Made by a program: the position numbers and the translations under genes. A stretch of 64,000 bases of DNA. It comes from Synechococcales cyanobacterium S06. Lineage in GTDB: Bacteria > Cyanobacteriota > Cyanobacteriia > Cyanobacteriales > JAABRE01. Shown here piece after piece: positions 49 to 53,555 of this stretch (within the stretch, counting starts at the first letter, position 1; each line of letters starts with the position of its first letter). The stretch is from the NCBI GenBank assembly GCA_011391125.1, contig JAABRE010000004.1:26921-90920 (forward strand). The letters are read 5' to 3'. The notes under the pieces were generated by a model that had not been told where the DNA came from, searched no databases, and saw only the letters and a program-made list of their open reading frames with translations.

Positions 49-336
49 TTGACCCTCACCCCCAACCCCTCTCCCGAAGGGTGAGGGGAGTCGGACTCCC
101 CCCTCTCTCTGAGAGAGAGGGGGGTTGGGGGGGTGAGGGTTTCATTGACCCTCACCCCCAACCCCTCTCCCGAAGGGTGAGGGGAGTCGGATGGGGGGTG
201 AGGGTTTCATTGGCCCTCACCCCCAACCCCTCTCCCGAAGGGTGAGGGGAGTCGGATGGGGGGTGAGGGTTTCATTGACCCTCACCCCCAACCACTCTCC
301 CGAAGGGTGAGGGGAGTCGGATGGGGGGTGAGGGGG
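49..336. repeat. Tandem array of G/C-rich palindromic elements. Type A is CCCTCACCCCCAACCCCTCTCCCGAAGGGTGAGGGGAGTCGG plus a GGTGAGGG tail. The first unit also carries the type B palindrome CCCCCCTCTCTCTGAGAGAGAGGGGGG.
   Basis: Read directly. CATTG(A/G)CCCTCACC restarts at 143, 208 and 273, a 65-bp period. The first composite unit is longer (49-144). The array is far more G/C-rich than the flanking AT-rich DNA. Confidence 0.9.
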
Positions 337-365: not shown

Positions 366-3300
366 TCAAAAATTTAGGTTTCTAAACGCATTTAAAGCAG
401 CTTGTTTCACCCCATCAGAAACGATGGGAAATGTGGTTAAAATGTGGCTAAATTCGGTTTCAGTTAACCCATATAATTTGGCACAGATTCCGTCAATTTC
501 GGCCCGAATTTTTGCCCTTTCTGACTCCCCCCTCTCTCTCAGAGAGAGGGGGGTTGGGGGGGTGAGGGAAGCAGCTAAATCTTCATATTCTGGACTTGTA
601 CAAATTAATTTGGCTGCCCTTTCTACTATTTCTTGAAAGTAAGGATCACCTTCTGTTAATCTTGGCACAGGAAGTTGATAAATATAAAACATATTAACGT
701 TAGTTGTGACTTTTTGACGCAAGGTAAAATCGACGATAAAACTATTAAGAATACCTTGTAAATAAAGCAATTCTAAACTCGATATTTGCTTAACTTCTGA
801 TAATACTAACAGGGAATTTCCACAGAAGATATTTTTAGGTAATATAGATGCAATTAATGTTTTTTCATTGGTATTACTTGCGATCGCTCTTATTCCCAAT
901 CTATAACATTGGTAATCTAAAATTTGGCCATTGTCAACTCCTTTTTTGCCTAATATTTTTTGTCTTCCTTCTTCTTCATCAATCCAATATTTAGGAGCAG
1001 CAAAATTATGGGTAAATTGATGAATCATTTTCCCTTCATAGAGAGGTAATCTTCCTTTTCCTGACTCAGTTTTAAACAATTTACTATCATTAGTCATGTC
1101 AAATTCACGAGTTAATTTTAAATTCCATTTCCCCTCAATTTGTGCTCCTAAAAGGGGAAACTGACTCATTTTTTGCGCTATTTCTATGTCTAACTCCGAC
1201 TTAAATTCCATTACTGAGAGAGAATCAGGAGACAATTTCTTGATTAAATCTAGGGAAATATTCAGGGTATTTTCATCAGGAAAACTAGCTAATTCTGACA
1301 CATCATGACGCATAAATTTAGCGGGAAAAGATTGAGTAACATATTCCCCTCCCCCTGTGGGAGAGGGGTTAGGGGTGAGGGCATATTCCCCTCCCCCTGT
1401 GGGAGAGGGGTTAGGGGTGAGGGCATTTTCAAAAGTTAACACCACAAATTTAAACCTACTATCCACACCTTCAAAAATAGCTTTCCTATTTTCAAAACAG
1501 AATAAACCCGTGATTTTGGTCTGGGAAAATAACATTTCTCGCAGTTGTTTTGTACCTAAATCCGTATAAATTCCGCTAGGGATGACTATACCACACTCGC
1601 CATTTTTTGCCAGTAAATTAACACATTGCTCCACAAATAACTTATATAAATTAATATCAGTGCCTTGTTTTTTACCATTTACCACTGATATTTGATTGCG
1701 GTATTGTTCCGCATTGCGATAATATAAACTAACGTGGGGATAATTACTTTGATATTCCTGCCAAGCTGCGGCGATTTCTGGATTTTCGAGTAACTTTTGC
1801 TGCTGTTTTTCAAAAGTCTTAATATCCATCTTATTTTTAGTAACTAAATCGCTATATTCGGCGAAAAATTCCTTAGCTTGGGGTTTAAAAATTTCCCAAG
1901 GTGGATTAGTTAAAATAATGTCAAAACCGCCTTTTTTCCCGATGATTTCATCAAAATGATAACCCCAATGGAAAGGTTTTAAATTTTCCATGTCTTTGAG
2001 GTTTAATAAACGTTTTTTTGCCTTACCTTTTAGTTGTGTTTCCTCATATTTAATGCCTAAGTTTTGACTAAATTCATCTAACAAAATTTGGTTAAGTTTA
2101 CTGATAGATTCTTGGTTAACTTGTTCGATGTGTTGACGTAACATTTGCAGTCGATCTTCCTGCTCTGTGCCTTCAATTGTTTCCGCTTTAAATGCGTGTT
2201 GTTTATATAATTGAATGCTCTTGTTTTTTTCTTTTAATATTCTTTGATATTCGGAAGCCGCCAACATCGGCAACAAACTCCCTTGTCCATTTGCCCTCAC
2301 CCCCAGCCCCTCTCCCACAGGGTAATTTGCCCTCACCCCCAACCCCTCTCCCACAGGGTGAGGGGAGTCGGATGGGGGGGTGAGGGTTTCATTAGGGTGA
2401 GGGGAGTCGGATGGGGGGGTGAGGGTCTGATTTGCCCCCAACCCTTCTCCCACGGGTGAGGGGAGTAAAGTTTCAAAGGAATTACCATCAATTTTAGTTA
2501 AACCGATTAAGGAATTACCGGCCATAATGTTAAAATCAATGTTAGGTAAAGGTTCTAAATCTGCCACTTTTTCGGCACTAGCAACTAAGCTTAAAAATAA
2601 CCTTAATTTGGCGATTTCCGTGGCTTCTTCCATGATATCTACACCGTATAAATTGTCAGTAATTACCCGTTTTTTTATGTAGTATTCTAAGGATGGATGC
2701 TGGTTTTTAATATTAGTTAGTCGGGTTTTATTCGCTTCATCGCCGTGGTGTTCAATCCAGTTAAAAACCTCGGTATAAATGTTAATTAAATGTTGCAAAG
2801 CAGCCACTAAAAACGCGCCACTTCCACAAGCTGGATCGAGAATTGTCAAATTAGGCAAGATTTCATCTAATAATTGATTTGCCCTCACCCCCAGCCCCTC
2901 TCCCGAAGGGTGATTTGCCCTCACCCCCAGCCCCTCTCCCACAGGGAGATTTGCCCTCACCCCCAGCCCCTCTCCCACAGGGTGATTTGCCCTCACCCCC
3001 AGCCCCTCTCCCACAGGGTGAGGGGAGTCGGACTCCCCCCTCTCTCTGAGAGAGAGGGGGGTTGGGGGGGTGAGGGCGGAAATATATTTATTAATGGTTT
3101 TTTCGCACAAATAATTAGTTATTTCTGGTTTGGTGTAGTATGCGCCAAAGGCTTTTTGGTTAATATACTTCTCAAAAATATACCCTAAAACATCGGGGTT
3201 AATTTCGTTATCTTTACCCGTGGGAGTGTCGTTTAAGTGCCAAGTATAGCTAGAGAATAGACGAAATATTGCTTTAAATGCAGAGTTGGCGATATTTATT

Positions 3301-4145
3301 TTGTTATATTTTAGCTCCATTTTATGGGGTAAAAATAAGCCACCGTTTAGATATTTAATGTTACCAACTAGGGCAATTGTTTCGGGTTTTCTGGCTTTTT
3401 CTGGCTTGGCGATCGCCTCAAACCAAAGGGTTTTCAAAAATTCATAAAAGTTAGCTTCGTTTTGCTTTAATTTGTCTTGTAAATAGTCGGTATTTCCGTT
3501 ATCTAAAAAGCCTTTTTTCTGGAGAAAATAGAGAAACATTAGACGATTGAGGATTACGGAAGCATACCAGTTTTTATCTTTTTCGTTGTCAATTCCCGTG
3601 ATAAAAATGACAAATTTTTTATGCTCTTGTTGGAATTCCTCGAAGAATTTTTTAGTGATTTTTTCGATGTCAAATGCTTTTTTGACCTTCGATGTTACCT
3701 GTAATAAAGTTAAGTGGTCTTCTTCGGCAAAGTCGATATAAATTTGCTCTAATTTTTGTAGCAATAATTCCCCAGTTTGTTTAATATTAAAGTTAGTTTC
3801 TCTGTTTTTTGAGGTTTTGTCACTTTCCTTATTTTGCCATTGCCAAATTTGCTTTTCTGAGGAGTTATCGGCATAAATGACAATATTTTCAAAGGAATGA
3901 CTACTAATTTCTGAGGCCAGATATTTGCGGGTTTTACTGTCAGGAAATATGCCATTTTCTGAGGTGCAATGATAAACGGTTAAACCTCTTTTTTGCGCTA
4001 CTGCTGTTAGATTGTAGCAATTATCATTATGTTTAATAACAAGGGAATCACTGTTAGGATTATCCCAACCTAATTCTTCAATAAACAGGGATTCAAAGTC
4101 GAACTTTTTCAGGTAATTTAAGGCATTTTGACGATTAATTTTCAT
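366..4145 (-). CDS. Eco57I/TaqI-like N6-adenine DNA methyltransferase with a C-terminal specificity region (methyltransferase 1). It carries four blocks of in-frame repeat insertions.
   Basis: Motif I is ILDPACGSGAFLV and motif IV is ILTNPPWEIFKP. It also has NIMAGNSLIG and a C-terminal LQGILNSFIVDFTLRQ...YIYQLPVP region typical of TaqI/Eco57I-type specificity domains. The N-terminus reads LFIEELGWD. The 1259-aa ORF is uninterrupted. Confidence 0.85.
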   Translation of the reverse strand: MKINRQNALNYLKKFDFESLFIEELGWDNPNSDSLVIKHNDNCYNLTAVAQKRGLTVYHCTSENGIFPDSKTRKYLASEISSHSFENIVIYADNSSEKQIWQWQNKESDKTSKNRETNFNIKQTGELLLQKLEQIYIDFAEEDHLTLLQVTSKVKKAFDIEKITKKFFEEFQQEHKKFVIFITGIDNEKDKNWYASVILNRLMFLYFLQKKGFLDNGNTDYLQDKLKQNEANFYEFLKTLWFEAIAKPEKARKPETIALVGNIKYLNGGLFLPHKMELKYNKINIANSAFKAIFRLFSSYTWHLNDTPTGKDNEINPDVLGYIFEKYINQKAFGAYYTKPEITNYLCEKTINKYISALTPPTPLSLRERGESDSPHPVGEGLGVRANHPVGEGLGVRANLPVGEGLGVRANHPSGEGLGVRANQLLDEILPNLTILDPACGSGAFLVAALQHLINIYTEVFNWIEHHGDEANKTRLTNIKNQHPSLEYYIKKRVITDNLYGVDIMEEATEIAKLRLFLSLVASAEKVADLEPLPNIDFNIMAGNSLIGLTKIDGNSFETLLPSPVGEGLGANQTLTPPSDSPHPNETLTPPSDSPHPVGEGLGVRANYPVGEGLGVRANGQGSLLPMLAASEYQRILKEKNKSIQLYKQHAFKAETIEGTEQEDRLQMLRQHIEQVNQESISKLNQILLDEFSQNLGIKYEETQLKGKAKKRLLNLKDMENLKPFHWGYHFDEIIGKKGGFDIILTNPPWEIFKPQAKEFFAEYSDLVTKNKMDIKTFEKQQQKLLENPEIAAAWQEYQSNYPHVSLYYRNAEQYRNQISVVNGKKQGTDINLYKLFVEQCVNLLAKNGECGIVIPSGIYTDLGTKQLREMLFSQTKITGLFCFENRKAIFEGVDSRFKFVVLTFENALTPNPSPTGGGEYALTPNPSPTGGGEYVTQSFPAKFMRHDVSELASFPDENTLNISLDLIKKLSPDSLSVMEFKSELDIEIAQKMSQFPLLGAQIEGKWNLKLTREFDMTNDSKLFKTESGKGRLPLYEGKMIHQFTHNFAAPKYWIDEEEGRQKILGKKGVDNGQILDYQCYRLGIRAIASNTNEKTLIASILPKNIFCGNSLLVLSEVKQISSLELLYLQGILNSFIVDFTLRQKVTTNVNMFYIYQLPVPRLTEGDPYFQEIVERAAKLICTSPEYEDLAASLTPPTPLSLRERGESERAKIRAEIDGICAKLYGLTETEFSHILTTFPIVSDGVKQAALNAFRNLNF
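523..568. repeat. Type B palindromic element inside the methyltransferase 1 CDS
   Basis: Sequence is GACTCCCCCCTCTCTCTCAGAGAGAGGGGGGTTGGGGGGGTGAGGG. It is translated in frame as LTPPTPLSLRERGES. Confidence 0.85.
1341..1424. repeat. Two tandem 42-bp type A-variant elements inside the methyltransferase 1 CDS
   Basis: ATATTCCCCTCCCCCTGTGGGAGAGGGGTTAGGGGTGAGGGC occurs twice, starting at 1341 and 1383. It is translated as ALTPNPSPTGGGEY twice. Confidence 0.9.
2289..2465. repeat. Cluster of type A elements and fragments (36-bp and 39-bp periods) inside the methyltransferase 1 CDS
   Basis: GCCCTCACCCCCA(G/A)CCCCTCTCCCACAGGGT starts at 2293 and 2329. GGGTGAGGGGAGTCGGATGGGGGGGTGAGGGT occurs twice with a 39-bp period. 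The translation is PVGEGLGVRAN-type repeats. Confidence 0.85.
2877..3077. repeat. Four tandem 36-bp type A units followed by one type B palindrome, inside the methyltransferase 1 CDS just upstream of motif I
   Basis: GCCCTCACCC starts at 2881, 2917, 2953 and 2989, an exact 36-bp period. CCCCCCTCTCTCTGAGAGAGAGGGGGG follows. The translation is HPVGEGLGVRAN four times, then SLRERG. Confidence 0.9.
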
Positions 4146-4156
4146 GGTTTTTGTTC

Positions 4157-4534
4157 TTATTTTTTGAGATAATCATTAGCAAAATTAAAGAATTCTTCGG
4201 CTTTAGCTATTTGTATTTTAACTTGTGATGCTTCAATAATATTAATATCACCATAGTCACCTAAATGGCGTAAATCTTGGGCTTGTTTTAAGTATTGATG
4301 ATATTTTCTGGGTACTAAATCTGTTTTAGCAAATTCACGACCAAAAGCAGAAATTACAGCAGAATGTTTAGAAAAGCCAAGGTTTTTACTAGCTAAAAAA
4401 GCCGATGCTAGATAAAACATTGTATAGTAAGCTCTGGCTACGGCAAAATCAGGATAACCTCCTTCTAGTAACAATTTTGATGCAGCTAAACTTTGTTGAG
4501 CTTTAATAATTAGATGTTCTATATCTTCATTCAT
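4157..4534 (-). CDS. HEPN domain protein, the putative toxin of an MNT-HEPN pair
   Basis: 125 aa with AQDLRHLGDYGD, a HEPN-type R...Y motif near the C-terminal third. It overlaps the upstream MNT gene by 4 nt (ATGA). Confidence 0.7.
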   Translation of the reverse strand: MNEDIEHLIIKAQQSLAASKLLLEGGYPDFAVARAYYTMFYLASAFLASKNLGFSKHSAVISAFGREFAKTDLVPRKYHQYLKQAQDLRHLGDYGDINIIEASQVKIQIAKAEEFFNFANDYLKK

Positions 4535-4857
4535 AATAAGATTCCATCTTTTTTGATATTTTTTATTAGTGGTTTATTCTCTTGGTTAAGTTTTGATTCT
4601 GAGAGATAAAAACAATTAATTAAAGCCTCATATTTTAAACACATTTCACTGATTAAATAGCTATTTTTCGTTATTTCTTCCACGGGGTTAACGTCATCTT
4701 TTAATACTACTAATATATCAATATCAGAGTCTGGTTGAGCATCTCCTCTAGCCTGTGAACCAAACAAAATTAATTTGCTTAATCTTTCTTGATAAATTAA
4801 GTTAAACTCTTTTTTTACTTCTTCAGTAATAGATTTTATTGTTTGATTAGCTGTCAT
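4531..4857 (-). CDS. Minimal nucleotidyltransferase (MNT), the putative antitoxin of an MNT-HEPN pair
   Basis: LFGSQARGDAQPDSDIDILVV matches the GSxxRG...DxD nucleotidyltransferase signature. 108 aa. Confidence 0.8.
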   Translation of the reverse strand: MTANQTIKSITEEVKKEFNLIYQERLSKLILFGSQARGDAQPDSDIDILVVLKDDVNPVEEITKNSYLISEMCLKYEALINCFYLSESKLNQENKPLIKNIKKDGILL

Positions 4858-4878: not shown

Positions 4879-7800
4879 TTAATTATTAATTGTAAATAAT
4901 CCCAATGAACAAATTATTTGTGCTTCTCTGAGTTCATCTTCTGGATTTATTATACAAAGTCCGTTGTTTTCTCGCAAGGTTATTACTATTTTTGCCAATT
5001 CTTCGTTGCTCAAATTTTTGCCACGTTGTTTGTTTAATCTGGCGATCGCAGTCTGTTTTAAGGGATAATTATAAATTTCTTCAACCGCTTGACAAAGATT
5101 TTCCCAGTCGTTACCCTGGGCTAAAATTGGCGTTTTTGTTTCAATCCATTGCAGGTAGTTTTTTAGTTGTTGGTAGGTCCTCGCTCTTGCGCCTTTAGCA
5201 TTGCCTAAACGCCCGCCGAGGCTTTTTTGCTGTTTTTGGATAAATTCAGACCCTAATGCCACTAATTCGTGGTGTTGGGGATGTTTTTGGATGGGGGATG
5301 CATCCCTCGCACAGGCTGCCAGCCGCAAAATCCGCGTTTGCGATTGGGTGACACTTTGGCCTTTTTCGTCTATCCACGCCAACGCGTCTGTACCTTCGGG
5401 TGTTCTCAAATACATCAATACCCCTTGGGGATCAATATCTGTGCCTTGATGATTACGGGTGCTATAGCTGACATTGGGTAGGTTTTCAATGATGGTTTTG
5501 AGGGAAGGATCAGATGCGATCGCATTTTGCCAAATTTGCCAAGCTTCGGAGATAAAATCCACTGACTGTTGGTCTTCTTCGTCTAAAATGCCAGATTTTT
5601 CGTGGTATAAATCGAGGATTAACTGAGGGGAAATGTCCTCAAAAAATACCTCGTCGGTGCCAACTACTTCGGCGTTTTGTTGGAGGCGATCGCTTAATCT
5701 ACCTCGTAAATTAATTAAGTTTTCGACTCCTTCTGCGGGTAAAAAGGAGTAACACAAAATTTCAGGAGCGTTTTGACCAATTCTATCAACTCTGCCCGCT
5801 CTTTGGATTAATCGAATAATTGCCCAAGGAAGATCATAGTTAACAATAATATGACAATCCTGTAAGTTTTGACCTTCACTTAAAACATCGGTGGCAATTA
5901 AAATTCTTAATTCATTTTCTGGGGCAATTTTAGCTTCTTTTTTGTTACTTTTAGGACTAAAACGAGCCGCTAATTCGGTGGGATTATTGCTGTTTCCTGT
6001 GACACTTTCCAGGTTAGCAATTCCTTGGTTTTCCAAGGCTTTTTTTAAGTAGTGAGTGGTGTCAGCAAATTGGGTAAAAATTAGGACTTTATCTTGGCAA
6101 TGTTGGCCTTTTAAAAGTTCACTTAAAGCTAACAATTTTTGGTCTTGTTTTTCCTCCCAATTGCCACAATCTTGCAAAAGATTAATTAAATTTTGGGCAT
6201 CTGCTCGTAAATCTTTGAATAAATTTTTAGTAAATAAATCACTCCTTAACCATTTAAAACGTTTGGGATATTTATTTGCGTAGATTTCATAGACTTTAGC
6301 CGCTTGTTTTTGGTACTCTTTTTCTGTCTTTAAAAGGCTGTTAGCTTCTAGGCTGCTTGTTTTATCGTCATTTTCTGAATTATCATCTTCCCAAGTTACA
6401 CTATTAATAGAATCGGTATCTTCATCATTATTAAGAGTATCTAAAAAGCCTAAATCCTGTGTACCAATGGGAATTTCTAAGTTATTTTTTAGGGCATAAA
6501 TGTAAATATAATTCCGTAAAATATGGCGCTCTAAGGATTGAATGAAAGCAAAGCCACTACTTTCTAATCGTTTAAATAAATTGGTGCGACAAAATCCCAT
6601 TAAACGACGACCTGCTCTTGATAAATTACTCAGTTGTTTCTGCTCAGCCTCGGTTAAATTTTTAGGTTTCTTTTCCACTTGATAATTTCCTAAACCATAG
6701 CGAGGTAATTTGAGATTATTAATAATATTAATTACCTCTTCTGAATATAATCTGCTGTAAATATCAGATTGAGGGTTTTTAACGGGAAATTTAATGGTTT
6801 TGGGAATCCGTAAAGGAAAATAAGACCGACTTCCATCGGGAAATTCTAAATAAATACGCCCAGTTAGGTCATCTTTTTTGGCGTAATTTTGTTTGATAAA
6901 ACTCCTAGTTCGTCTTACCATATAATGACTCATTAATTGTTGCCAATCTTCTGAATATTCGCTCTTTTCAAAGGCTGCAATTGACCGAATCTGAGTTTGA
7001 GGAAATTGTTGAATGAAACTTTTTTCTTGACGGCTTAAATACTGGATTAATGCGTCAGGTTTAATGCCTAAATCTTTGTCTTCTGGGATAAATAAACGTA
7101 GTTGTGCGGATAAATCTAAGTAGTTTTTATTATAGGGGGTTGCTGTTAGTAAGATACAACGACTATCACTTTCTTCAATGTATTGTTTAATTGCTGCATA
7201 ACGTTGTCCTTCTTTGTTTCTTAAATTATGACTTTCGTCGATTAATACTAATCTAAATCGAGCGGGAATATTGCCCAATTCTTTTGTTACCATACTGAAG
7301 GGAATTACTTTACCTCTTAATCCATATTCTGCGACATAATTTTCCCACATTAAGACTAAGTTTTTTGGACAAATAATTAAGGTGCTAAAACCGAAATCTT
7401 CTTCACAAATTCTTGCTATTGCTGTCCCTATCAATGTTTTCCCCAAACCTACTACATCTCCTACTATTACTCCCCCTCTTTTATTAACATGATTGGTGGC
7501 AATTTTTACTGCTAATTCTTGAAATTCAAATAGCTTAAATTCATCTGGTATCTGATATTGATTTAATCCGTCTCTTGCTTCTTGGGATAAATGATAGGCC
7601 ATTTTTAAATAGATATAATAGGGCGGAATTAGGTCTTCTCTAGCCCAACTTTCATCTATTATTGTGATTAATTCTTGGGAAATATCTAAGCAAAATTTAT
7701 CTGACCACATTTCGTTAAACCAATTTTGTAATTTGGCTGTAGCATCGTGTTCAAGCACGTCTATGTTTAATTCTCCCTGTTTTAAGAGGCCAGATAAGGT

Positions 7801-8289
7801 TAAATTACTACTTCCTAAAAAGGCTATCATTGGTAAATTGATTTGATGTTGGGGTATTAAATAAAGTTTACCATGCAAGGGATTTCTTAAATATAATTTA
7901 ACTACTAATTTTTTATTAAGCAATTGTTTTTTTAATTGTTGCAGATACAATTCATCCCGATTATTAGGACATCCTAATATTAATTGCCGACGAAATTCTT
8001 GGGCTACTTTTTTCTTAATTTTTTGAGCCTCATTTTGATCTATTTTGCGGTTTTCTTTTTCTAAACTTAGTGCCTTATATAGTTGATCTTTTTCCAGTTT
8101 TTGCATCCCAATTAATAACCGACAACAGTTATTTTCTCCCCCACTAAACTGCTCGATTTCTTCACTAATTAATTGCCATCCCCTTAAGTTAAAATAACCG
8201 ACACAAAAATCGGCGCTTTTGGCATTTTGTAAACTATGTTTTAGTGTCTCTAATAGCTGTTGGTTAATATTGTCAAAAATGCGTGGCAT
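4879..8289 (-). CDS. Fusion of an N-terminal PLD-family (HKD) nuclease domain with an SNF2/SF2 helicase
   Basis: HKD motif: LHGKLYLI...FLGSSNLTLSGL. Helicase motif I is GDVVGLGKTLIG, motif II is LIDESHNLRN and motif VI is QRAGRVDRIGQ. 1136 aa. The stop codon lies 21 bp from the MNT start. Confidence 0.85.
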   Translation of the reverse strand: MPRIFDNINQQLLETLKHSLQNAKSADFCVGYFNLRGWQLISEEIEQFSGGENNCCRLLIGMQKLEKDQLYKALSLEKENRKIDQNEAQKIKKKVAQEFRRQLILGCPNNRDELYLQQLKKQLLNKKLVVKLYLRNPLHGKLYLIPQHQINLPMIAFLGSSNLTLSGLLKQGELNIDVLEHDATAKLQNWFNEMWSDKFCLDISQELITIIDESWAREDLIPPYYIYLKMAYHLSQEARDGLNQYQIPDEFKLFEFQELAVKIATNHVNKRGGVIVGDVVGLGKTLIGTAIARICEEDFGFSTLIICPKNLVLMWENYVAEYGLRGKVIPFSMVTKELGNIPARFRLVLIDESHNLRNKEGQRYAAIKQYIEESDSRCILLTATPYNKNYLDLSAQLRLFIPEDKDLGIKPDALIQYLSRQEKSFIQQFPQTQIRSIAAFEKSEYSEDWQQLMSHYMVRRTRSFIKQNYAKKDDLTGRIYLEFPDGSRSYFPLRIPKTIKFPVKNPQSDIYSRLYSEEVINIINNLKLPRYGLGNYQVEKKPKNLTEAEQKQLSNLSRAGRRLMGFCRTNLFKRLESSGFAFIQSLERHILRNYIYIYALKNNLEIPIGTQDLGFLDTLNNDEDTDSINSVTWEDDNSENDDKTSSLEANSLLKTEKEYQKQAAKVYEIYANKYPKRFKWLRSDLFTKNLFKDLRADAQNLINLLQDCGNWEEKQDQKLLALSELLKGQHCQDKVLIFTQFADTTHYLKKALENQGIANLESVTGNSNNPTELAARFSPKSNKKEAKIAPENELRILIATDVLSEGQNLQDCHIIVNYDLPWAIIRLIQRAGRVDRIGQNAPEILCYSFLPAEGVENLINLRGRLSDRLQQNAEVVGTDEVFFEDISPQLILDLYHEKSGILDEEDQQSVDFISEAWQIWQNAIASDPSLKTIIENLPNVSYSTRNHQGTDIDPQGVLMYLRTPEGTDALAWIDEKGQSVTQSQTRILRLAACARDASPIQKHPQHHELVALGSEFIQKQQKSLGGRLGNAKGARARTYQQLKNYLQWIETKTPILAQGNDWENLCQAVEEIYNYPLKQTAIARLNKQRGKNLSNEELAKIVITLRENNGLCIINPEDELREAQIICSLGLFTINN

Positions 8290-27624: not shown

Positions 27625-27792
27625 GTTTGTAGTTGCGCTTTAGCGCTATAAACATATTTGTATCAATTTATACAGATTTTAAAGCAGGAATATGTATCTA
27701 AGATAGCGCTAAAGCGCAACAACGAACTTTTGGGGAGAATATGTAGCCAAGATAGCGCTAAAGCGCAACAACGAACTTTTGGAGAGAAGAAT
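27625..27792. repeat. Composite repeat block upstream of methyltransferase 2. It has an inverted pair GTTGCGCTTTAGCGCTAT / ATAGCGCTAAAGCGCAAC, the ATTTATACAGATTTT...GAATATGTAT motif, and a 49-bp direct duplication.
   Basis: GAATATGTA(TC/GC)...AAGATAGCGCTAAAGCGCAACAACGAACTTTTGG(G/A)GAGA occurs twice (about 27690-27738 and 27739-27787). The motif recurs at 29711-29775 and 31153-31200. Confidence 0.85.
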
Positions 27793-29607
27793 ATGGATAT
27801 TAATCAGTATCTTGAAAGTTTACAAGTTAATCTGAAAAAAGGCAGTGAAAGGAGTCATTATCCAGCTTTAAAAATGCTGATTGATGGGGGAATGATGGGG
27901 ATTAATGCGATTATTGAAGAAACCAAGAATCAAGCAGGTATTCCCGATTTTACGGTGAGAAAAAATGAGGTTTTGTTAGGGTATATTGAGGCAAAAAAAA
28001 TCGGGGAAAATTTAGCTAAAATTGAAAAAACGGAGCAAATTCAACGTTATTTAGATTCAGCAATTGGTCAAAATTTTATCTTAACTAATTATCTGGAATT
28101 TCGCTGGTATATTGATGGCAAACATCAGTTAACCACGGAAATTGGGACAATAAAACAAGATCAAATTATTATTAGTAATAACCTCGAAAAAACCGCCGAA
28201 TTGTTAACGTTTTTTCTGAATTATCAAGGGGAAATAATTAATAATCCCTCGGATTTAGCCCAACAAATGGCACGTTATACAAAAACGATAAAATATTCAA
28301 TTCAAGAAGCTTTAAGCAGCGAAACCGAGGAATTAAGCCAACTTAAAACCTTATTTCAAGAATTATTAATCCCTGATTTAGATAATAATAATTTTGCGGA
28401 TATGTATGCTCAAACCATTGCTTATGGATTTTTTACTGCTAGAGTTGGCCATGCCCAAAATCCGAGTCAATACCCCTTTAATCGACAAACTGCTAGTTAT
28501 TATATCACCGATAGAATACCGTTTTTAAAAGGTTTATTTACTACGGTGATTGCCACAGAATCAGCCACTAAAATTTGTTGGACAATTGATATTTTAGTGG
28601 AACTTTTGGCTAAAATTGATATGGGAAATATCCTCGAAAATTTCGGGCAAAAAACTAGACAATCTGATCCTGTTGTTCATTTTTACGAGACATTTTTAGC
28701 AAATTACGAAGCTTCTTTAAGGAAAAATAGGGGTGTGTATTATACCCCTGAGCCTGTTGTTGCTTTTATTGTACGAGCAGTAAACCAAATATTAGAAAAG
28801 CGTTTTAACCTAGAATTAGGGTTAGGAAATAAGCAGGTGACCATACTTGATCCTGCAACTGGAACTGGTACTTTTTTATATCAAGTAATTAAACAAATTT
28901 ACCAAAATTTAGAGGAATATGGATTGGCAAAAAATTGGGATAAATATGTTAAGGAATCTAATTTATTAAACCGTTTATATGGTTTTGAATTATTAATGAC
29001 TCCCTACACCATTGCCCACTTAAAAATAGGATTATTATTAGAAAATTTAGGTTATCAATTTCAAAATAAAGAAAGGTTAGGAATTTATTTAACCAACGCA
29101 TTAGATAAAGGTGTTAAGAAATCTGACTTAATTTTAGGGAAATATCTCTCAGAAGAAGCCAACCAATCTGCAGCAATTAAAACAGATAAACCGGTATTAG
29201 TGGTAATAGGAAATCCACCCTATTCTGGGGAGTCTGCTAATAAAAATAATCCTTGGATTGAAGCATTAGTTAAGGATTATTATTTAGTTGATGGTGTCTC
29301 TTTAAACGAAAAAAATCCTAAATGGTTACAGGATGACTACGTTAAATTTATTCGTTTTGGGCAATGGCGAATTGAACAAACTGGTTACGGAATCCTAGCT
29401 TTTGTAACCAATCATGGTTATTTGGATAACCCAACTTTTCGGGGAATGCGTCAGAATTTAGCGCAAACTTTCGACGAAATTCATATTATTGATTTACATG
29501 GAAATGCCAAGAAAAAAGAGGTTTCACCCGATGGAAAACCAGATAAAAATGTGTTTGATATTCAGCAAGGAGTAAGTATTGCTATTATGGTAAAATTTCC
29601 CAAGTAA
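27793..29607 (+). CDS. Type IIG/ISP-like restriction-modification enzyme (methyltransferase 2), N-terminal fragment with PD-ExK nuclease-like and gamma-class N6-adenine methyltransferase domains
   Basis: PD-ExK-like nuclease motif: IPDFTV...GYIEAKK. Motif I is LDPATGTGTFLYQ and motif IV is VIGNPPYSGES. The ATG at 27793 is preceded by GGAGAG. The ORF stops just after GVSIAIMVKFPK. Confidence 0.8.
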   Translation: MDINQYLESLQVNLKKGSERSHYPALKMLIDGGMMGINAIIEETKNQAGIPDFTVRKNEVLLGYIEAKKIGENLAKIEKTEQIQRYLDSAIGQNFILTNYLEFRWYIDGKHQLTTEIGTIKQDQIIISNNLEKTAELLTFFLNYQGEIINNPSDLAQQMARYTKTIKYSIQEALSSETEELSQLKTLFQELLIPDLDNNNFADMYAQTIAYGFFTARVGHAQNPSQYPFNRQTASYYITDRIPFLKGLFTTVIATESATKICWTIDILVELLAKIDMGNILENFGQKTRQSDPVVHFYETFLANYEASLRKNRGVYYTPEPVVAFIVRAVNQILEKRFNLELGLGNKQVTILDPATGTGTFLYQVIKQIYQNLEEYGLAKNWDKYVKESNLLNRLYGFELLMTPYTIAHLKIGLLLENLGYQFQNKERLGIYLTNALDKGVKKSDLILGKYLSEEANQSAAIKTDKPVLVVIGNPPYSGESANKNNPWIEALVKDYYLVDGVSLNEKNPKWLQDDYVKFIRFGQWRIEQTGYGILAFVTNHGYLDNPTFRGMRQNLAQTFDEIHIIDLHGNAKKKEVSPDGKPDKNVFDIQQGVSIAIMVKFPK

Positions 29608-29786: not shown

Positions 29787-31079
29787 ATGGCAAAAATATA
29801 TCATTTTGATTTGTATGGAAGTCGTCAAGATAAATATGATTTTCTTGACGCAAATAATATGGATACAATTGAATGGCAAGAAATTAAACCTCAGTCTCCT
29901 TTTTATCTATTTATTCCCCAAAATACTGATTTATTAGGCGAGTATGATTTTGGTTGGAAAATAACAGAAATTATGCCGATTAATTCGGTGGGAATTGTCA
30001 CCGCGCGAGATTCTTTAACGATTCATTGGAGTCAAGAATCAGTGGAAAAAACGGTTAAGGATTTTGTTAATTTACTAGAAGAAGAAGCGAGAAATAAGTA
30101 TGATTTAGGTAAAGATTCACGGGATTGGAAAGTAGATTTTGCTCAAGAGGATTTACGTCAAAGTGGTTTAAAAAAAGAGTTAATTGTACCGATTTTATAT
30201 CGCCCTTTTGACATAAGATACACTTATTATACAGGAAAATCAAGGGGTTTTCTTTGTATGCCTAGAAATGAAGTAATGAGAAATATATTAGGTAGGGAAA
30301 ATTTAGGATTAATAACAGTTAGACAAGTTGCAGAAGGGATTTTTAATCACAGTTTTGTTACTACAAATATTATTGAAAGTAGAATTACTGTTAGTAATAA
30401 AGGTATAGGTTTTATTTTTCCCCTTTATATTTACCCGAATACAGAAAATGAGCAGTCCAATTTATTTGAGCAAAAAAAGGCGAATTTTTCGGCTGAATTT
30501 TTAACAGCAATTAAGGAAAAAGTAGGGTATCTTCCCACACCTGAAAACATTTTTTATTACATTTATGCAATATTTCATTCCCCTAGTTATCGTCAAAGAT
30601 ACGCAGAATTTTTAAAGATAGATTTCCCCAGAATACCATTAACAAATAATGAGAAATTATTTCAAAAGTTAAGCGAAATTGGAGAAAAATTGGTTAATTT
30701 ACATTTGATGAAAATAAGCCCTCACCCCCCTTCCCCCCTCTCCCACAGGGGGAGGGGGGAATCTCTACCTCAGAATAAAGTAAGTTTTCATAGTGAAGGA
30801 GATAATTTAGTAAGTCAGGTTAAATATGATGCTAAAAAAGAGAGAATTTATCTCAATAAAGAAAGTTATTTTGCTAATATTTCTGAGGAGGTTTGGCAAT
30901 TTCAAATCGGTGGTTATCAAGTTTTAGATAAGTGGTTAAAATCCCGAAAAAAAGCCAATCGTGAGTTAACTTATGAAGACATTATTCACTATCAAAAAAT
31001 CGTAGTTATCTTACAGGAAACCATTAGATTAATGTCAGAAATAGAGCAAAATCTCGACTTCGGTCAGAGCTTTGCGTGA
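29787..31079 (+). CDS. Type IIG/ISP-like enzyme (methyltransferase 2), C-terminal fragment carrying the specificity domain
   Basis: IYAIFHSPSYRQRYAEFLKIDFPRIPLT and EVWQFQIGGYQVLDKWLKSR are hallmarks of the type ISP-like C-terminal domain as I remember it. It continues the fragment ending at 29607. Confidence 0.8.
   Translation: MAKIYHFDLYGSRQDKYDFLDANNMDTIEWQEIKPQSPFYLFIPQNTDLLGEYDFGWKITEIMPINSVGIVTARDSLTIHWSQESVEKTVKDFVNLLEEEARNKYDLGKDSRDWKVDFAQEDLRQSGLKKELIVPILYRPFDIRYTYYTGKSRGFLCMPRNEVMRNILGRENLGLITVRQVAEGIFNHSFVTTNIIESRITVSNKGIGFIFPLYIYPNTENEQSNLFEQKKANFSAEFLTAIKEKVGYLPTPENIFYYIYAIFHSPSYRQRYAEFLKIDFPRIPLTNNEKLFQKLSEIGEKLVNLHLMKISPHPPSPLSHRGRGESLPQNKVSFHSEGDNLVSQVKYDAKKERIYLNKESYFANISEEVWQFQIGGYQVLDKWLKSRKKANRELTYEDIIHYQKIVVILQETIRLMSEIEQNLDFGQSFA
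30719..30762. repeat. Type A-variant palindromic element in frame in the methyltransferase 2 C-terminal fragment
   Basis: GCCCTCACCCCCCTTCCCCCCTCTCCCACAGGGGGAGGGGGGAATC, translated as SPHPPSPLSHRGRGES. Confidence 0.85.
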
Positions 31080-34571: not shown

Positions 34572-34655
34572 TTTTTTACTCCTATTTAATTGTTTTGATT
34601 TTATCACGCAAAGAGGCAAAGGCGCAAAGGGGGTTTTCGGTTTGTTTACTAGATT

Positions 34656-42377: not shown

Positions 42378-44312
42378 GATTTCTATTTTTTTTATGATTT
42401 TTACGGTTTCGACACTGACTGTTGTTACTCTCATTAATAAGTCGATCGCCTGTTCTTTGTAGTCAGCAAAATGATAGTTATTAAATTTTTCGGCGATCGT
42501 TTGATCCTTGGGTTTTTTCTCTTTATATTGGTCTAATATCCACTCAATTGCACTACGATTTCCTAATTGATATTCCCACGCAATATTCGGGACATTTTCT
42601 AAGGTTGTCACCTCATCAATTAATATTTGACCTTTGGTTTTATCTGCTTTTAATTTGGGTTTTATAACCCCCCAACCCCCCTTGGAAAGGGTGGCTTTTT
42701 GTTTCCCCCCTTGAAAGGGGGGGTTGGGGGGGGTAAGATCAATTCTCTTTAATTGATAAGGTGTAATACTCTCATAATTTAGGTGTAATTCCATTAATTG
42801 TTTACCCCATTTTACCCACTGATAAAAGTCTTCATAAAAGGGTATTCTTGGGAAATCTCGCTTTAAATTTAACTCATATTTTTCCCGATATTTAGGGTTA
42901 TGTAAAACTGCATAAATATAATGAAATATGTCGAGTTTAGTGATTTCCCTCTCCCCCAACTTTTCTCCATTGGCGAAATTAGCCCTCACCCCCAACCCCT
43001 CTCCCACAGGGTGAGGGGAGCTAGAATTGTCTGAAAGTCTTCTCCCCCCTCTCTCTGAGAGAGAGGGGGGGTGGGGGGGTGAGGGTTGATAATAATCCCT
43101 AAACTGCTGTAATCCCCAATCGGTAATATTTTCCTGTTTATTTCCCTCTTCATCATAAGTATATAAGGGTAAACATTGACTATCACCTGTAAAATGATAA
43201 TCCATAATTATATTTGATACCAAACAGTAAAAAGGTTGATTAACGCTTTTTTCGGCTAGACAAATAACAAGATTATCTTTTTGTAGATCTTTCCCAAATA
43301 TATCATAGTGATTAAATGTCAATCTATCAGATAAACTCTTGTCACTATAGTAATTTTTCTTAACAAAAGGTCGATAATAAAGATTAACAATTAAATTAGA
43401 ATCAAATTTTAATTGGTTAAAATTTGATAAATTTTTCTTTAAAGTTTCACTCCATTTAATTTCATAATTAACAAAGTTATTTATATTAGATAGATTATTT
43501 TGTTTAGATCTATCAATATCCTGGTTATAAATTTTAATAAAATATTTAATTTTTTCTACTAATTGCCATAAATCATAATCATAAACCCAATCATCTCGAT
43601 TTGATTTTACTGCACTTGTATAAAGTTTAAAAATTGCTTTTTGTTTATCTACTTTTTTCGCTAATTTTGTTTCCTTATTTGCTAAAGGTAATAAACTATC
43701 AAAATCATTATCTGCTGCTAAATTAATCCAATTATTATTTTGATCAGGTTGTATATGTTCAAAATGAATTTGCTCAAACTTATGACTTGCTAAAAATTGT
43801 AACTTTTCTTGACCACTATTTAAGTTTGTTAAAGAATTATAAAATATTTGACATTTTTCCCTCACCCCCAACCCCTCACCCTCTGGGAGAGGGGAGTCGG
43901 ATTTTTTCACAAAAAATAAAATAGCAACCCCTACCATAATATTAAAAACGTTTCCTGTGGTATCTCCTGCGCGAATATTTCCTCCTAAATCTATCACATA
44001 AATATAATCAAATTCATCCTGAACAACCTTCCTAAAACCGTCAAAAGTACGCGCATTTATAAAGGAATTATTTGTTATAAATGCGATAATTCCCTTATCA
44101 CTAATGCGATCACTTGCCCATCTTAAAAAACGAGCATACATATCATAAACTTTCGTTTTTTGAGCGGTACTTTCTTTGATATAAGTATCTTTAATTCGCT
44201 TATCTATGGCAGGATATTCCCTATTTTTGTTGTTATCATTTTCGTTTTGTTGGTTAGCATTGTAGGGAGGATTACCAATAATTACTGATATTTTACGGTC
44301 ATTTTGTCGCAC
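42360..44312 (-). CDS. Type IIG/ISP-like enzyme (methyltransferase 3), distal part with methyltransferase motif IV and the specificity domain. It is separated from the proximal part by a single in-frame TGA.
   Basis: Motif IV is VIIGNPPYNANQ. IYAVLHNPKYREKYELNLKRDFPRIPF and IAWEYQLGNRSAIEWILDQYK are also present. The apparent GTG start at 44312 is in the same frame as the upstream ORF. Confidence 0.8.
   Translation of the reverse strand: MRQNDRKISVIIGNPPYNANQQNENDNNKNREYPAIDKRIKDTYIKESTAQKTKVYDMYARFLRWASDRISDKGIIAFITNNSFINARTFDGFRKVVQDEFDYIYVIDLGGNIRAGDTTGNVFNIMVGVAILFFVKKSDSPLPEGEGLGVREKCQIFYNSLTNLNSGQEKLQFLASHKFEQIHFEHIQPDQNNNWINLAADNDFDSLLPLANKETKLAKKVDKQKAIFKLYTSAVKSNRDDWVYDYDLWQLVEKIKYFIKIYNQDIDRSKQNNLSNINNFVNYEIKWSETLKKNLSNFNQLKFDSNLIVNLYYRPFVKKNYYSDKSLSDRLTFNHYDIFGKDLQKDNLVICLAEKSVNQPFYCLVSNIIMDYHFTGDSQCLPLYTYDEEGNKQENITDWGLQQFRDYYQPSPPHPPSLSERGGRRLSDNSSSPHPVGEGLGVRANFANGEKLGEREITKLDIFHYIYAVLHNPKYREKYELNLKRDFPRIPFYEDFYQWVKWGKQLMELHLNYESITPYQLKRIDLTPPNPPFQGGKQKATLSKGGWGVIKPKLKADKTKGQILIDEVTTLENVPNIAWEYQLGNRSAIEWILDQYKEKKPKDQTIAEKFNNYHFADYKEQAIDLLMRVTTVSVETVKIIKKIEIKETEA
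42667..42736. repeat. Type C elements (CCCCCC-TTGAAA-GGGGGG type hairpins) in frame in methyltransferase 3
   Basis: AACCCCCCAACCCCCCTTGGAAAGGGTGG...CCCCCCTTGAAAGGGGGGGTTGGGGGGGG, translated as TPPNPPFQGGKQKATLSKGGWG. Confidence 0.85.
42982..43086. repeat. Type A plus type B elements in frame in methyltransferase 3
   Basis: GCCCTCACCCCCAACCCCTCTCCCACAGGGTGAGGGGAGC ... CCCCCCTCTCTCTGAGAGAGAGGGGGGGTGGGGGGGTGAGGG, translated as PSPPHPPSLSERGG...SSSPHPVGEGLGVRAN. Confidence 0.9.
43859..43901. repeat. Type A-variant element in frame in methyltransferase 3
   Basis: CCCTCACCCCCAACCCCTCACCCTCTGGGAGAGGGGAGTCGGA, translated as SDSPLPEGEGLGVRE. Confidence 0.85.
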
Positions 44313-44352
44313 CCCCCCTAACCCCCCCTTTCAAGGGGGGGAAGGGGGGGTC
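44310..44352. repeat. Type C element that supplies the in-frame TGA splitting methyltransferase 3
   Basis: CACCCCCCCTAACCCCCCCTTTCAAGGGGGGGAAGGGGGGGTC. On the minus strand the reading is ...ETPPSPP-TGA-KGGLGG-V(GTG)RQND. Confidence 0.9.
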
Positions 44353-45755
44353 TCCCTCGTCATTGAAAATATATCAAACTGTGTTTCAGAAAAACTGCTA
44401 TTATCTAAGGTGTCAACTAAACACATATTATTAAATAATTCATATTCCCCCATTAGCTGTTGATAAGTGTATTCAATATTAAGATTAGCGATGTAATAGG
44501 GCAATATTGAAACTTCATTGCAATGGATTTCATTGAGATATTTATACTTTAATTGATGACTTGGTAAATATCCTAATAAAGCCGTAATAAAAGTACCAGT
44601 TCCCGTAGCTGGGTCTAGGATTTCAACTCCTCGATCTCCTAACAATTTATTAAAGTGTTTATGTAACAAATAATCGGTACTTTCCACCATGAAATTAACG
44701 ATTTCATTAGAAGTATAAACGATACCGAGGCGATCGGCTGCTAAGGGATTATAAGCTTTGTAAAATTCCTCATAAACCTTCTTTAAAAACTGCTGTTTTT
44801 CATTGTGATCACTCAAATTTGCCGCAGTTCTAATAATCACAGAATAGTAATTATCAATCTTCTTAAATGTATTCTTTTTAAGATTACCTGTAAAAAAAGT
44901 TTCGATGACTTTATGTAACGATTTGGCAATGTTATTTTCCCGGTGAAATTCTCCCTCATTAAAAATATTGATAAATATATCTTCAGTTAAAATATGCTGA
45001 ATGATCATCTCCCGAATATCATCACTATTAATATTAGGATTAATGGATTCTTGACAGAGTTTTAAAAAGGCGTTAAATTCCTGTTTAAATGCGGTTAGGT
45101 GGGCTGTTTCTAAATGATTAGAAACAAGATAATTATCTGGTCCAGAAACTGTAAATTGTTGTTTAAATTCGGGTTGGTGGGCTGTTTCTAAATGATTAGA
45201 AACAAGATAATTATCTGGTCCCGAAACTGCCCACCCTACCAGGGGATTAAGCAGATTTCTCAGGGTATCTAAAATGGTGGGCAAATCTTCCTTAAAAGAG
45301 GCGATCGCTTGTCTAAAATCCTTAACTTCCGGCCGTTGATAATCGAAAAATTGGGTAATAATTTTATGTAATTGGTCTGAATTTTTAACATTTACTCGAC
45401 TAACTTCTTGACCACCTTGGATTAAAATTGCTGTCTCGGAATTTTCAAATAAAATATTATCATTGGGATAACCTTCCTTAAATTTTTTCTCAATTTCCTG
45501 CTCTAAATTATCCTTAATATCTTTACTTTCCCAATATCCCCAATCCAAACCTAAGTCATCTTTAACTATTCCATCCGGTCTTTTTCTACTTTTATCTAAA
45601 GTTAATTCCGCAACTACAGTAAAATTACGACTAGAACAATAATTATTTAACAGATTGAAAAAAGCTATTTTAATAGACTGTTCATTTTTGCTACCACCAC
45701 GTCTAATAAAGTCATCTAATTGTTTATAATACTGATTAATTAATAAATAAGACAT
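44331..45755 (-). CDS. Type IIG/ISP-like enzyme (methyltransferase 3), proximal part with a PD-ExK nuclease-like N-terminus and methyltransferase motif I
   Basis: RPDGIVKD...GYWESKD is PD-ExK-like. YTSNEIVNFMV is also present, and motif I is LDPATGTGTFITALLGY. It ends at a TGA inside a repeat element. Confidence 0.8.
   Translation of the reverse strand: MSYLLINQYYKQLDDFIRRGGSKNEQSIKIAFFNLLNNYCSSRNFTVVAELTLDKSRKRPDGIVKDDLGLDWGYWESKDIKDNLEQEIEKKFKEGYPNDNILFENSETAILIQGGQEVSRVNVKNSDQLHKIITQFFDYQRPEVKDFRQAIASFKEDLPTILDTLRNLLNPLVGWAVSGPDNYLVSNHLETAHQPEFKQQFTVSGPDNYLVSNHLETAHLTAFKQEFNAFLKLCQESINPNINSDDIREMIIQHILTEDIFINIFNEGEFHRENNIAKSLHKVIETFFTGNLKKNTFKKIDNYYSVIIRTAANLSDHNEKQQFLKKVYEEFYKAYNPLAADRLGIVYTSNEIVNFMVESTDYLLHKHFNKLLGDRGVEILDPATGTGTFITALLGYLPSHQLKYKYLNEIHCNEVSILPYYIANLNIEYTYQQLMGEYELFNNMCLVDTLDNSSFSETQFDIFSMTRETPPSPP
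45098..45235. repeat. Tandem (78-bp period) copies of a ~60-bp hairpin element with GGTGGGC(T/A)GTTTC ... GAAACTGCCCACC termini, in frame in methyltransferase 3
   Basis: GGTGGGCTGTTTCTAAATGATTAGAAACAAGATAATTATCTGGTCC starts at 45098 and 45176. The protein shows VSGPDNYLVSNHLETAH twice. Confidence 0.9.
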
Positions 45756-53512: not shown

Positions 53513-53555
53513 GCCCCCCCTTTTTTAAGGGGGGGGAAGGGGGGGTGCGTGAGAT
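53513..53555. repeat. Type C G/C-homopolymer hairpin between the convergent cbbY and trpE genes
   Basis: GAGCCCCCCCCTTTTTTAAGGGGGGGGAAGGGGGGGTGCGTGAG. Confidence 0.85.

Follow-up and report, generated by a model that had tools for sequence, protein, structure and literature searches.

Palindromic repeats of the BoxC/PIT/triplex motif type in frame within a predicted cyanobacterial DNA methyltransferase gene, and their proposed relation to DUF559 cassettes

How does the gene of a large enzyme stay open when about 500 bp of G/C-rich palindromic DNA lies within it? This question is raised by a 1259-aa open reading frame (ORF) of Synechococcales cyanobacterium S06, located at 366..4145 on the minus strand of a 64,000-nt stretch of contig JAABRE010000004.1 (the whole stretch that was analysed, hereafter the window). 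The ORF is uninterrupted from ATG to stop and contains four blocks of the palindromic repeats that also form an intergenic array at 49..336, 3' of the gene. The initial annotation compared the blocks to the in-frame palindromic elements of Rickettsia (RPEs) and left two alternatives, i.e., strong filtering for tolerated surface loops or elements adapted to be readable in frame. With a probability of roughly 80%, we consider the gene to encode a methyltransferase maintained by selection, in which four linkers have been colonised by repeats of the known BoxC/PIT/triplex motif (TM) family that are, by inference, relatives of a cassette carrying a DUF559 endonuclease.

Repeat blocks in the methyltransferase gene

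The product of the ORF matches the Pfam profiles Eco57I (1e-22), MmeI_Mtase (1e-10) and DUF7814 as well as the PADLOC model REase_MTase_IIG (9e-133). Motif I (LDPACGSG, aa 436-443) and motif IV (NPPW, aa 747-750) are invariant in an alignment with orthologues, in which all catalytic motifs are intact, and motif I precedes motif IV as in the gamma class. From this motif order and the Eco57I/MmeI_Mtase profiles the protein is predicted to be an Eco57I/MmeI-like (type IIG-like) N6-adenine DNA methyltransferase. Pfam detected no nuclease domain inside it, a PLD nuclease being found on the adjacent SNF2 helicase gene instead, and a sequence search of solved structures returned no homologue.

The four blocks, all on the minus strand and numbered here from the N-terminus, add up to 508-510 nt and contain stretches of 37-92 nt that are 86-100% identical or complementary to the intergenic array. 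Site 1 (2877..3077; aa 357-423, 201 nt) lies just ahead of motif I, in the gap between the YYTP helix and that motif, and takes the place of about 18 native residues. In the sense of the gene it consists of a C2 block, a nested CT/AG palindrome, a spacer, one full TM unit and three partial TM units, and it encodes H/LPV/SGEGLGVRAN four times with a 36-nt period, the last of these peptides ending 14 aa before motif I. The nested palindrome, a perfect 27-mer of a second family termed B (CCCCCCTCTCTCTSAGAGAGAGGGGGG, 3035..3061), sits within some of the other repeat copies too (98-124 and 527-553). Site 2 (2289..2465; aa 561-619, 177 nt), after the NSLIGL segment, holds four TM-type units, full or partial, where orthologues have about 5 native residues. 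Site 3 (1341..1424; aa 908-935, 84 nt), after the VLTFEN strand, consists of two 42-nt units encoding ALTPNPSPTGGGEY twice at that period, where orthologues have GNQ. Site 4 (523..570; aa 1192-1208, 48 nt), in a C-terminal helix-helix loop, is made of a C2 block and a family-B palindrome; the conserved native EVGLGSHxNGVTDE is replaced there by SLTPPTPLSLRERGES, which is of nearly equal length. The G-rich strand is the sense strand at sites 1 and 2 and the C-rich strand at site 3. Units are read in at least three frames or orientations, giving GEGLGVRA, LTPNPSP or PLSLRERG, and PLSLRERGES occurs twice in the protein. The original description of an open ORF with about 500 bp of array-like blocks at four sites, translated as Pro/Gly-rich peptides in both orientations without stop or frameshift, thus holds, apart from the end of site 4, which the orthologue alignment moved from 568 to 570.

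By sequence and architecture the blocks belong to the already described BoxC/PIT/TM intrastrand-triplex repeats. In the units of the window a C-block and a loop are followed by two G-blocks with a 3-nt linker between them, and a complementary C-block is often present as a fourth block; the unit reads CCCCTCACCC-TGT-GGGAGAGGGG-CTG-GGGGTGAGGG. TMECO/BoxC type B of E. coli, CCCTCTCCC-TGT-GGGAGAGGG-CCG-GGGTGAGGG, matches it in layout and sequence, although its blocks are 9 nt long and those of the window 10 nt; the succession that defines the motif, a pyrimidine block CCCTCNCCC, a loop of 3-7 nt, the purine block GGGAGAGGG, a 3-nt linker and the purine block GGGTGAGGG, is present. The window contains 54 occurrences of the core 9-mers CCCTCNCCC and GGGNGAGGG, where shuffled sequence would give 0.29. 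When one genome per species was scanned, the exact 23-mer CCCTCACCCCYARCCCCTCTCCC was found in at least 120 loci; among the matches listed were Chloroflexota, Planctomycetota, Proteobacteria, Acidobacteriota, Armatimonadota, Nitrospirota, Bacteroidota and Cyanobacteria, and in nearly all of these a variable loop and a purine block near GGGAGAGGGG come after the 23-mer. Two loci (L026 and L027) carry perfect palindromic copies. The repeats are thus multi-copy, distributed across phyla and present in single and tandem-inverted forms, as is the family. Its motif has been reported in more than 260 genomes and is very abundant in Microcystis and other cyanobacteria (Holder 2015 NAR 43:10126; PMC4666352). 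The same study demonstrated triplex formation in vitro by circular dichroism and nuclear magnetic resonance, found the motif to mark loci rearranged between E. coli strains, i.e., loci of local instability, found no mobility genes nearby, and never mentioned intragenic copies. Earlier sources on BoxC and PIT (potential intrastrand triplex) elements are Bergler 1992 and Hoyne & Maher 2000, as cited there.

Searches of other databases were negative. Rfam gave no match at the gathering score, returning only hairpin look-alikes (microRNA precursors and BjrC80); a BLAST search of plasmids with the element gave no match, probably owing to the low-complexity filter; and in a protein-database search with a repeat-encoded peptide none of 172 candidates scored, as low complexity defeats HMMER. 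Folding of single-stranded DNA, covering Watson-Crick hairpins, gave strong hairpins for four of five units tested (-14 to -37 kcal/mol, z = -3.5 to -6.2), those with four blocks reaching -22 to -37 kcal/mol (z = -3.7 to -6.2). The tandem pair of site 3 did not stand out from shuffles (-18.9 kcal/mol, z = -1.4). The intergenic array (-22 kcal/mol, z = -3.7) contains four units with a period of about 65 nt, each [C2 C1 G1]-AGTCGGA-[G2] and the first with a nested family-B palindrome, and its junctions have the layout G1 - spacer - G2 - 9 nt - C2 - C1.

A homologue search with the block-stripped protein gave thousands of matches, the closest named ones being cyanobacterial and 1116-1170 aa long. 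In the alignment all four blocks are absent from the orthologues of Sphaerospermopsis, Dolichospermum, Microcystis, Nostoc and Nodularia, and each site is a segment that varies in length across orthologues. The block-stripped protein has 1088 aa, compared to about 1133-1145 aa for element-free orthologues. TM-type peptides were present in 4 of the best 120 homologues and a second G/C-rich palindrome family in another 4. The same four sites hold other repeat families, or the same family flipped, in the orthologues of Geminocystis herdmanii and Cyanobacterium sp. T60 and in Leptothermofonsia-like and Dolichospermum-like proteins, which indicates that the sites are permissive. Two Nostocales orthologues (P0008 and P0020) have a different in-frame tandem repeat at site 1, with units close to SASKIQEVEPLxEHSQSGDWERE, so unrelated cyanobacterial repeat families share one permissive loop. 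In an AlphaFold model of residues 60-1259, poor though it is, all four blocks are coil (pLDDT, a per-residue confidence score, 22-39) between helices or strands, and the Pro/Gly/Ser-rich linkers encoded by the repeats are probably disordered.

A close relative of the locus, on a metagenome contig from JGI (L001), is 92% identical at the nucleotide level with unchanged gene order. All four sites are occupied there as well, and an assembly artefact can be excluded, the contig being independent. The two differ by indels at three of the four blocks (sites 1-3), all of them in frame: a 30-nt indel that removes the nested palindrome at 3035..3061 from the relative, a 36-nt unit, a larger block whose length is a multiple of 3, and a 42-nt unit at site 3, of which the relative has three copies and the window two. 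At site 4 the inner hairpin is a different variant, and the relative lacks the intergenic array 3' of the gene. Outside the blocks and one hypervariable stretch, the ratio of nonsynonymous to synonymous substitution rates (dN/dS) between window and relative is 0.11 (dS 0.19, 1011 codons); for the helicase partner gene at 4879..8289 it is 0.09. As the relative carries the blocks, the value of 0.11 points to purifying selection on the protein while it carried the repeats, and the possibility that the gene is dead, raised at the outset, is answered in the negative. The hypervariable stretch (800-905, aa about 1080-1150, 76 codons) has dS 1.1 and dN 0.45 and is variable in all orthologues; judged from this pattern, it is probably a swapped target-recognition segment.

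Why, then, does the frame stay open? In single units between one and three of the six frames contain stops (on average about two), in the intergenic array all six do, and in another methyltransferase gene of the window a copy introduces an in-frame TGA (see below); the elements are therefore not built for reading in any frame. The tandem period is 36 or 42 nt inside the gene and 65 nt in the array. We conclude that the open frame is kept by selection on the host gene, which retains compatible variants only. Of the two alternatives left by the initial annotation, filtering for tolerated loops is favoured over adaptation of the elements to in-frame reading by the variable linkers, the coil prediction, the other repeat families at the same sites, the stops in the units and the TGA break. 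It is likely that the four orthologue-variable linkers were colonised by BoxC/PIT/TM repeats, that insertions, duplications and deletions which shift the frame or bring in a TGA would be purged by selection on the host gene, and that growth and shrinkage of tandem arrays between repeated blocks would leave only steps of 30, 36 and 42 nt in the gene. Transcription and translation of the gene would then include the repeats, which would give Pro/Gly/Ser-rich linkers in the protein.

Repeats around DUF559 genes

Other genes also contain the repeats in frame. In the cross-phylum sample the hosts include four N6 DNA methyltransferases (MmeI-type, HsdM, ISP-type and one other), MetRS, MnmE, an MFS transporter (in its central loop), HisA/F, AcrB, a hydrolase and a radical-SAM protein. 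Four of the first 10 host ORFs had an in-frame DUF559 domain, a Vsr-like PD-(D/E)xK endonuclease, with the repeat directly beside it in three, and in a betaproteobacterial MetRS inverted repeat copies flank the DUF559 domain on both sides. The association was quantified with 80 metagenomic DUF559 loci (L124-L203), fetched without reference to the repeat, of which 74 had usable flanks. Core 9-mers lie within 200 nt of the DUF559 gene in 58 of the 74 loci and on both sides in 44, and their density is 9.8 per kb near the gene compared to 0.12 per kb at more than 400 nt. The arrangement is polar, with G1-G2 upstream and C2-C1 downstream in 25 loci and the reverse in 2; the downstream repeat begins at the last codons of the DUF559 ORF, and the inner segment of the cassette has a median length of 375 nt. 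Repeats bracket DUF559 genes in five other loci (L004, L044, L048, L092 and L121) and in E. coli (NC_000913.3, 1351204-1351760; L204). In E. coli K-12, BoxC #9 is located 168 nt downstream of ycjD, a DUF559 gene whose 3' end overlaps a repeat hairpin.

Restriction-modification (R-M) genes are prominent among the hosts of such cassettes, accounting for 13 of 20 long ORFs with an in-frame DUF559 domain. These are ten HsdS genes, where the domain is between or beside the two recognition domains in nine and N-terminal in one, and one each of HsdM, HsdR and an Eco57I-like methyltransferase; the remaining hosts are LipB/LplA (2), MetRS, ThiC, FtsJ, HisA/F and one unknown protein. By locus, DUF559 was found in HsdS (L126, L127, L128, L129, L133, L143, L156, L157, L177, L178), HsdM (L195, L092), HsdR (L168) and methyltransferases (L199, L044, L121), and among housekeeping genes in MetRS (L004, L201), LipB (L132, L135), ThiC (L136), FtsJ (L130) and HisA/F (L169). 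The two MetRS cases are independent and at the same place. The cassette of L199, the Eco57I-like host, sits in the gap that separates the YYTP helix from motif I, i.e., at the exact equivalent of site 1 in the window, and BLASTP aligns the repeat-encoded peptides of the two proteins ahead of motif I.

The ends of the DUF559 cassettes, G1G2 and C2C1, correspond to the solo units, and the tandem-inverted BoxC pairs (Holder 2015, Table 1) have the layout expected of cassette ends minus the ORF, as has the junction in the array of the window. No target-site duplication was identified, and no paper connecting DUF559 to BoxC was found in the literature searched; Eco57I-type methylases and "DUF559 domain-containing proteins" are both enriched among predicted targets of programmed inversion (PMC9881135). 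The blocks in the window are probably ORF-less relatives of the DUF559 cassette, to judge from their repeats. It is tempting to go further and to propose that BoxC/PIT/TM repeats are the terminal inverted repeats, and the ORF-less derivatives similar to transposable elements of the miniature inverted-repeat type (MITEs), of a compact selfish DUF559 cassette, a proposal to which we give slightly less than an even chance. Such a cassette would consist of [C1-G1-G2], an ORF of about 375 nt for the Vsr-like endonuclease and [C2-C1-G1], and would enter permissive linkers of host genes in frame, with a preference for R-M genes such as HsdS (between the two target-recognition domains), HsdM, HsdR and type IIG/ISP methyltransferases. 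Carried along by these genes, which are readily transferred, it could have spread across bacterial phyla, and the four blocks would be its footprints or non-autonomous copies. That the DUF559 enzyme moves the repeats, and that residence in R-M genes explains their spread, are both inferred from the sequences. It fits the association equally well that the repeat is the preferred target site of the endonuclease and not its terminus.

Other copies in the window and the surroundings of the gene

The window has a low G+C content (36%) and 26 HIP1 sites, and the density of these sites, like the orthologues, points to a cyanobacterium. It has 11 clusters of core 9-mers: the intergenic array, eight clusters in three methyltransferase genes, and two lone 9-mers in other genes. 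The three genes, all for type IIG/ISP-like N6-methyltransferases, make up 16% of the window, and the binomial probability of such a concentration is about 1e-7 to 4e-6. In the second of them, on the plus strand, a TM-type element at 30715..30765 is read in frame (ISPHPPSPLSHRGRGESLP) within the Type_ISP_C domain. This gene is split into an N-terminal methyltransferase part (27658-29607) and a Type_ISP_C part (29787-31079), in different frames and separated by a 180-nt A/T-rich gap without repeat; both a pseudogene and an enzyme that naturally consists of two parts are conceivable. It adjoins a gene for a 1100-aa protein (31317-34619, minus strand) with an N-terminal Tubulin_2 domain (bacterial tubulin-like) and a C-terminal zinc ribbon.

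The third, type ISP-like methyltransferase gene (minus strand) contains three in-frame blocks in the C-terminal part (42360-44312), all within 42660..43901, namely 42660-42735 (family C), 42981-43090 (TM and family B) and 43858-43901 (TM). This gene too is split, into 44331-45755 and 42360-44312, here by a family-C four-block palindrome at 44308..44365 (minus strand; C7-TAA-C7-TTTCAA-G7-AA-G7), the loop of which gives the in-frame TGA ("TPPSPP*KGGLGGV"). A GTG lies 15 nt downstream of the TGA, preceded by a G-run, and re-initiation there could be possible, as far as the sequence goes. Family C is a homopolymer-block repeat (C7-8, loop TTxxAA, G7-8, AA, G7) with the C/G/G layout of TM and the peptide PPxPPLxKGG. 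A solo intergenic copy, C8-TTTTTTAA-G8-AA-G7, with the same C-block/G-block/G-block layout, is found at 53514..53546, and besides the three copies in the window (42660-42735, 44308-44365, 53514-53546) there are copies in locus L122 (7246-7280, 9637-9672) and in locus L123 (1228-1274, 1870-1909, 2773-2802, 7648-7681, 9369-9400). In Geminocystis herdmanii, family C also occurs in frame within the PLD-SNF2 helicase gene.

In the window the partner gene, at 4879..8289 on the minus strand, encodes a PLD (HKD) nuclease with an SNF2 helicase of 1136 aa (Pfam; PADLOC HKD+Snf2), and together with the methyltransferase gene it forms a predicted two-gene defence cassette, the synteny of which is kept in three further loci. 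Membership in DISARM or BREX was rejected, matches to DrmMI, DrmD and PglX being weak and partial and PADLOC finding no other components nearby. Between the two genes a HEPN (4157-4534) and nucleotidyltransferase (4531-4857) pair was identified by Pfam (4157..4857, minus strand). The toxin-antitoxin content of this slot changes from genome to genome: HEPN/MNT in the window (4157-4857), DUF29 and HEPN/MNT in L001 (3798-4989), YoeB/YefM in L122 (5094-5679), and PIN, HicA, MNT and PIN_3 in L123 (3437-5992).

Alternative explanations and comparison with known systems

Several observations weigh against a colonisation of linkers by relatives of a DUF559 cassette. Simple insertion does not explain why native residues were replaced at sites 1, 2 and 4, and the earlier description of the blocks as inserted needs correction to this extent. 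As a whole the AlphaFold model is of poor quality (mean pLDDT 52.9, pTM, its global score, 0.44), which leaves "surface loop" weakly supported structurally. Most repeats of the cross-phylum sample lie between genes, 39% being in long ORFs compared to 75% of random positions, and 20% compared to 65% at a G+C content below 0.55; the intergenic location given in the E. coli description does not hold for the window, but is a descriptive and not a defining feature. The 80 DUF559 loci were picked by similarity to repeat-flanked seeds, and the association with the repeat as well as the bias towards R-M genes may be inflated. Finally, no DUF559 ORF or remnant was found in the 64-kb window, so the link between blocks and cassette rests on the shared repeat sequence and the shared insertion site only.

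Other explanations fare worse. If the Pro/Gly-rich segments were ancestral low-complexity linkers, with a secondary likeness to intergenic DNA, this would agree with the length variation of the four sites in all orthologues and with the presence of some insert in several of them. However, in most orthologues these sites hold a short native sequence that is unrelated, and TM-type peptides are as rare as described above, the DNA of the blocks is 86-100% identical or complementary to the intergenic copies and matches the cross-phylum element as well, and the inserts of other lineages are different repeat families or have the other orientation. For practical purposes this explanation is refuted by the alignment with orthologues and by the identity to non-coding copies at the nucleotide level, and it is hardly credible. 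A decaying pseudogene, with a long ORF owed to luck and to the scarcity of stops in G/C-rich sequence, is likewise very improbable, although the units are stop-free in about four of six frames and the window has two further methyltransferase genes that are split. It is rejected on the dN/dS of 0.11 over 1011 codons since the split from a relative that already carried the blocks, on the fact that all indels between the two are multiples of 3, and on the intact catalytic motifs; moreover, at least four independent blocks at about 2/9 each would give about 0.002 under neutrality, as inferred from the stop counts of units.

It is conceivable that the repeats are of use to the enzyme, i.e., that in-frame gains and losses of copies, in steps of 10-14 aa within inter-domain linkers, adjust or switch its reach, specificity or activity. 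Differences in repeat length have such an effect in some type I HsdS subunits, and a tuning role would explain why repeats concentrate in R-M genes. Between the two strains that are 92% identical, three of the four sites vary in copy number, in each case in frame; R-M genes are where repeats and DUF559 cassettes gather, above all the stretch of HsdS that separates its two target-recognition domains; and the motif has been linked to local instability (Holder 2015; PMC4666352). But the same repeats or cassettes occur in MetRS, MnmE, MFS transporters, HisA/F, LipB and ThiC, for which a tuning role would be meaningless, a methyltransferase is broken outright by one copy, and most orthologues work without repeats, all of which makes a tuning role unlikely. 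Opposed copies within the gene could also serve as an inversion switch that turns the methyltransferase on and off. Site 3 is 88-95% complementary to sites 1 and 2 over 38-48 nt in pairs (I2-I6) 900-1590 nt apart, and the enrichment of Eco57I-type methylases and DUF559 proteins among predicted inversion targets (PMC9881135) points the same way. The chance of this is nevertheless close to negligible: no recombinase gene adjoins the locus, the window and its relative are both in the same ON arrangement, and the inversion would destroy the catalytic domain and not swap modules. Colonisation of permissive linkers under selection on the host gene thus remains the preferred explanation.

The family concerned has been without known origin or means of movement since the 1990s and, with function unknown, was previously characterised in non-coding DNA; here it appears from the sequence to be translated and to be kept under purifying selection in a defence enzyme. 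The DUF559 association is quantitative and makes the origin of BoxC/TM testable. If the link is true, it would explain the presence of the same 23-mer from E. coli to Chloroflexota, the instability of the loci, and the odd Pro/Gly-rich inserts or extra endonuclease domain in R-M genes of many phyla. As regards annotation, inserts of this kind make proteins longer, give rise to spurious "hypothetical proteins" and break genes apart.

Compared to BoxC/PIT/TM as described, the repeats in the window have the same succession of C-block, short loop, G-block, 3-nt linker and G-block in near-identical sequence, are multi-copy, occur in single and tandem-inverted forms and show local rearrangement, as in the indels between window and relative. 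On the other hand, the E. coli copies were mapped relative to ORFs and none was reported within a gene, while the window copies are translated in frame, some with a second palindrome nested in them, and the family flanks DUF559 ORFs. Coding residence in R-M genes and the tie to DUF559 appear to be undescribed. The finding is not a new class, because in-frame MITEs are known generally, RPEs being the extreme case (PMC10969869).

RPEs are about 100-150 bp long, specific to Rickettsia and characterised by one conserved peptide per family (Ogata 2000 Science and 2002 Genome Res, via PMC10969869). In that account they resemble the repeats in the window in being palindromic, in lying both between genes and in frame in functional genes, in adding peptide segments at tolerated positions and in having no transposase of their own. 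RPEs are hosted by many unrelated housekeeping genes, whereas the window repeats are concentrated in R-M genes, have units of 36-65 nt with unrelated size and base composition, cross phyla, are read in several frames and both orientations, and vary in tandem copy number. They share in-frame residence without disruption of the gene and depart from RPEs in length and in the single peptide per family. The parallel drawn earlier holds by analogy only, the window repeats being an RPE analogue and not an RPE member. Their translation within a selected gene is a second independent case of Rickettsia-type "selfish DNA in genes", in free-living bacteria.

Small dispersed repeats of cyanobacteria, reportedly the subject of a paper by Elhai and colleagues in Genome Research in 2008, and cyanobacterial MITEs are similar to the window repeats in being very short, in the nesting of one in the hairpin of another and in occasional intragenic copies, but by description are Nostocales- or Microcystis-specific and A/T-richer. 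We know of no such family of cyanobacteria that has been reported across phyla or tied to an endonuclease ORF. Nezha and the Microcystis MITEs are among the examples cited in PMC10969869. Lastly, Vsr and DUF559 belong to one PD-(D/E)xK group that includes a homing endonuclease of a group I intron (PMC3424549). Homing endonucleases and inteins (including the Vsr-like/EDxHD I-Bth0305I) resemble the DUF559 cassette in having a small ORF of the Vsr/DUF559 group at conserved host positions, in their sporadic distribution across lineages and in housekeeping hosts such as MetRS, LipB and ThiC. The cassette has no intron or intein splicing motifs, so that the DUF559 domain and the flanking repeat peptides apparently stay in the mature host protein, and, unlike homing endonuclease genes, its predicted endonuclease is bracketed by inverted G/C-rich repeats in the manner of a MITE or an insertion sequence.

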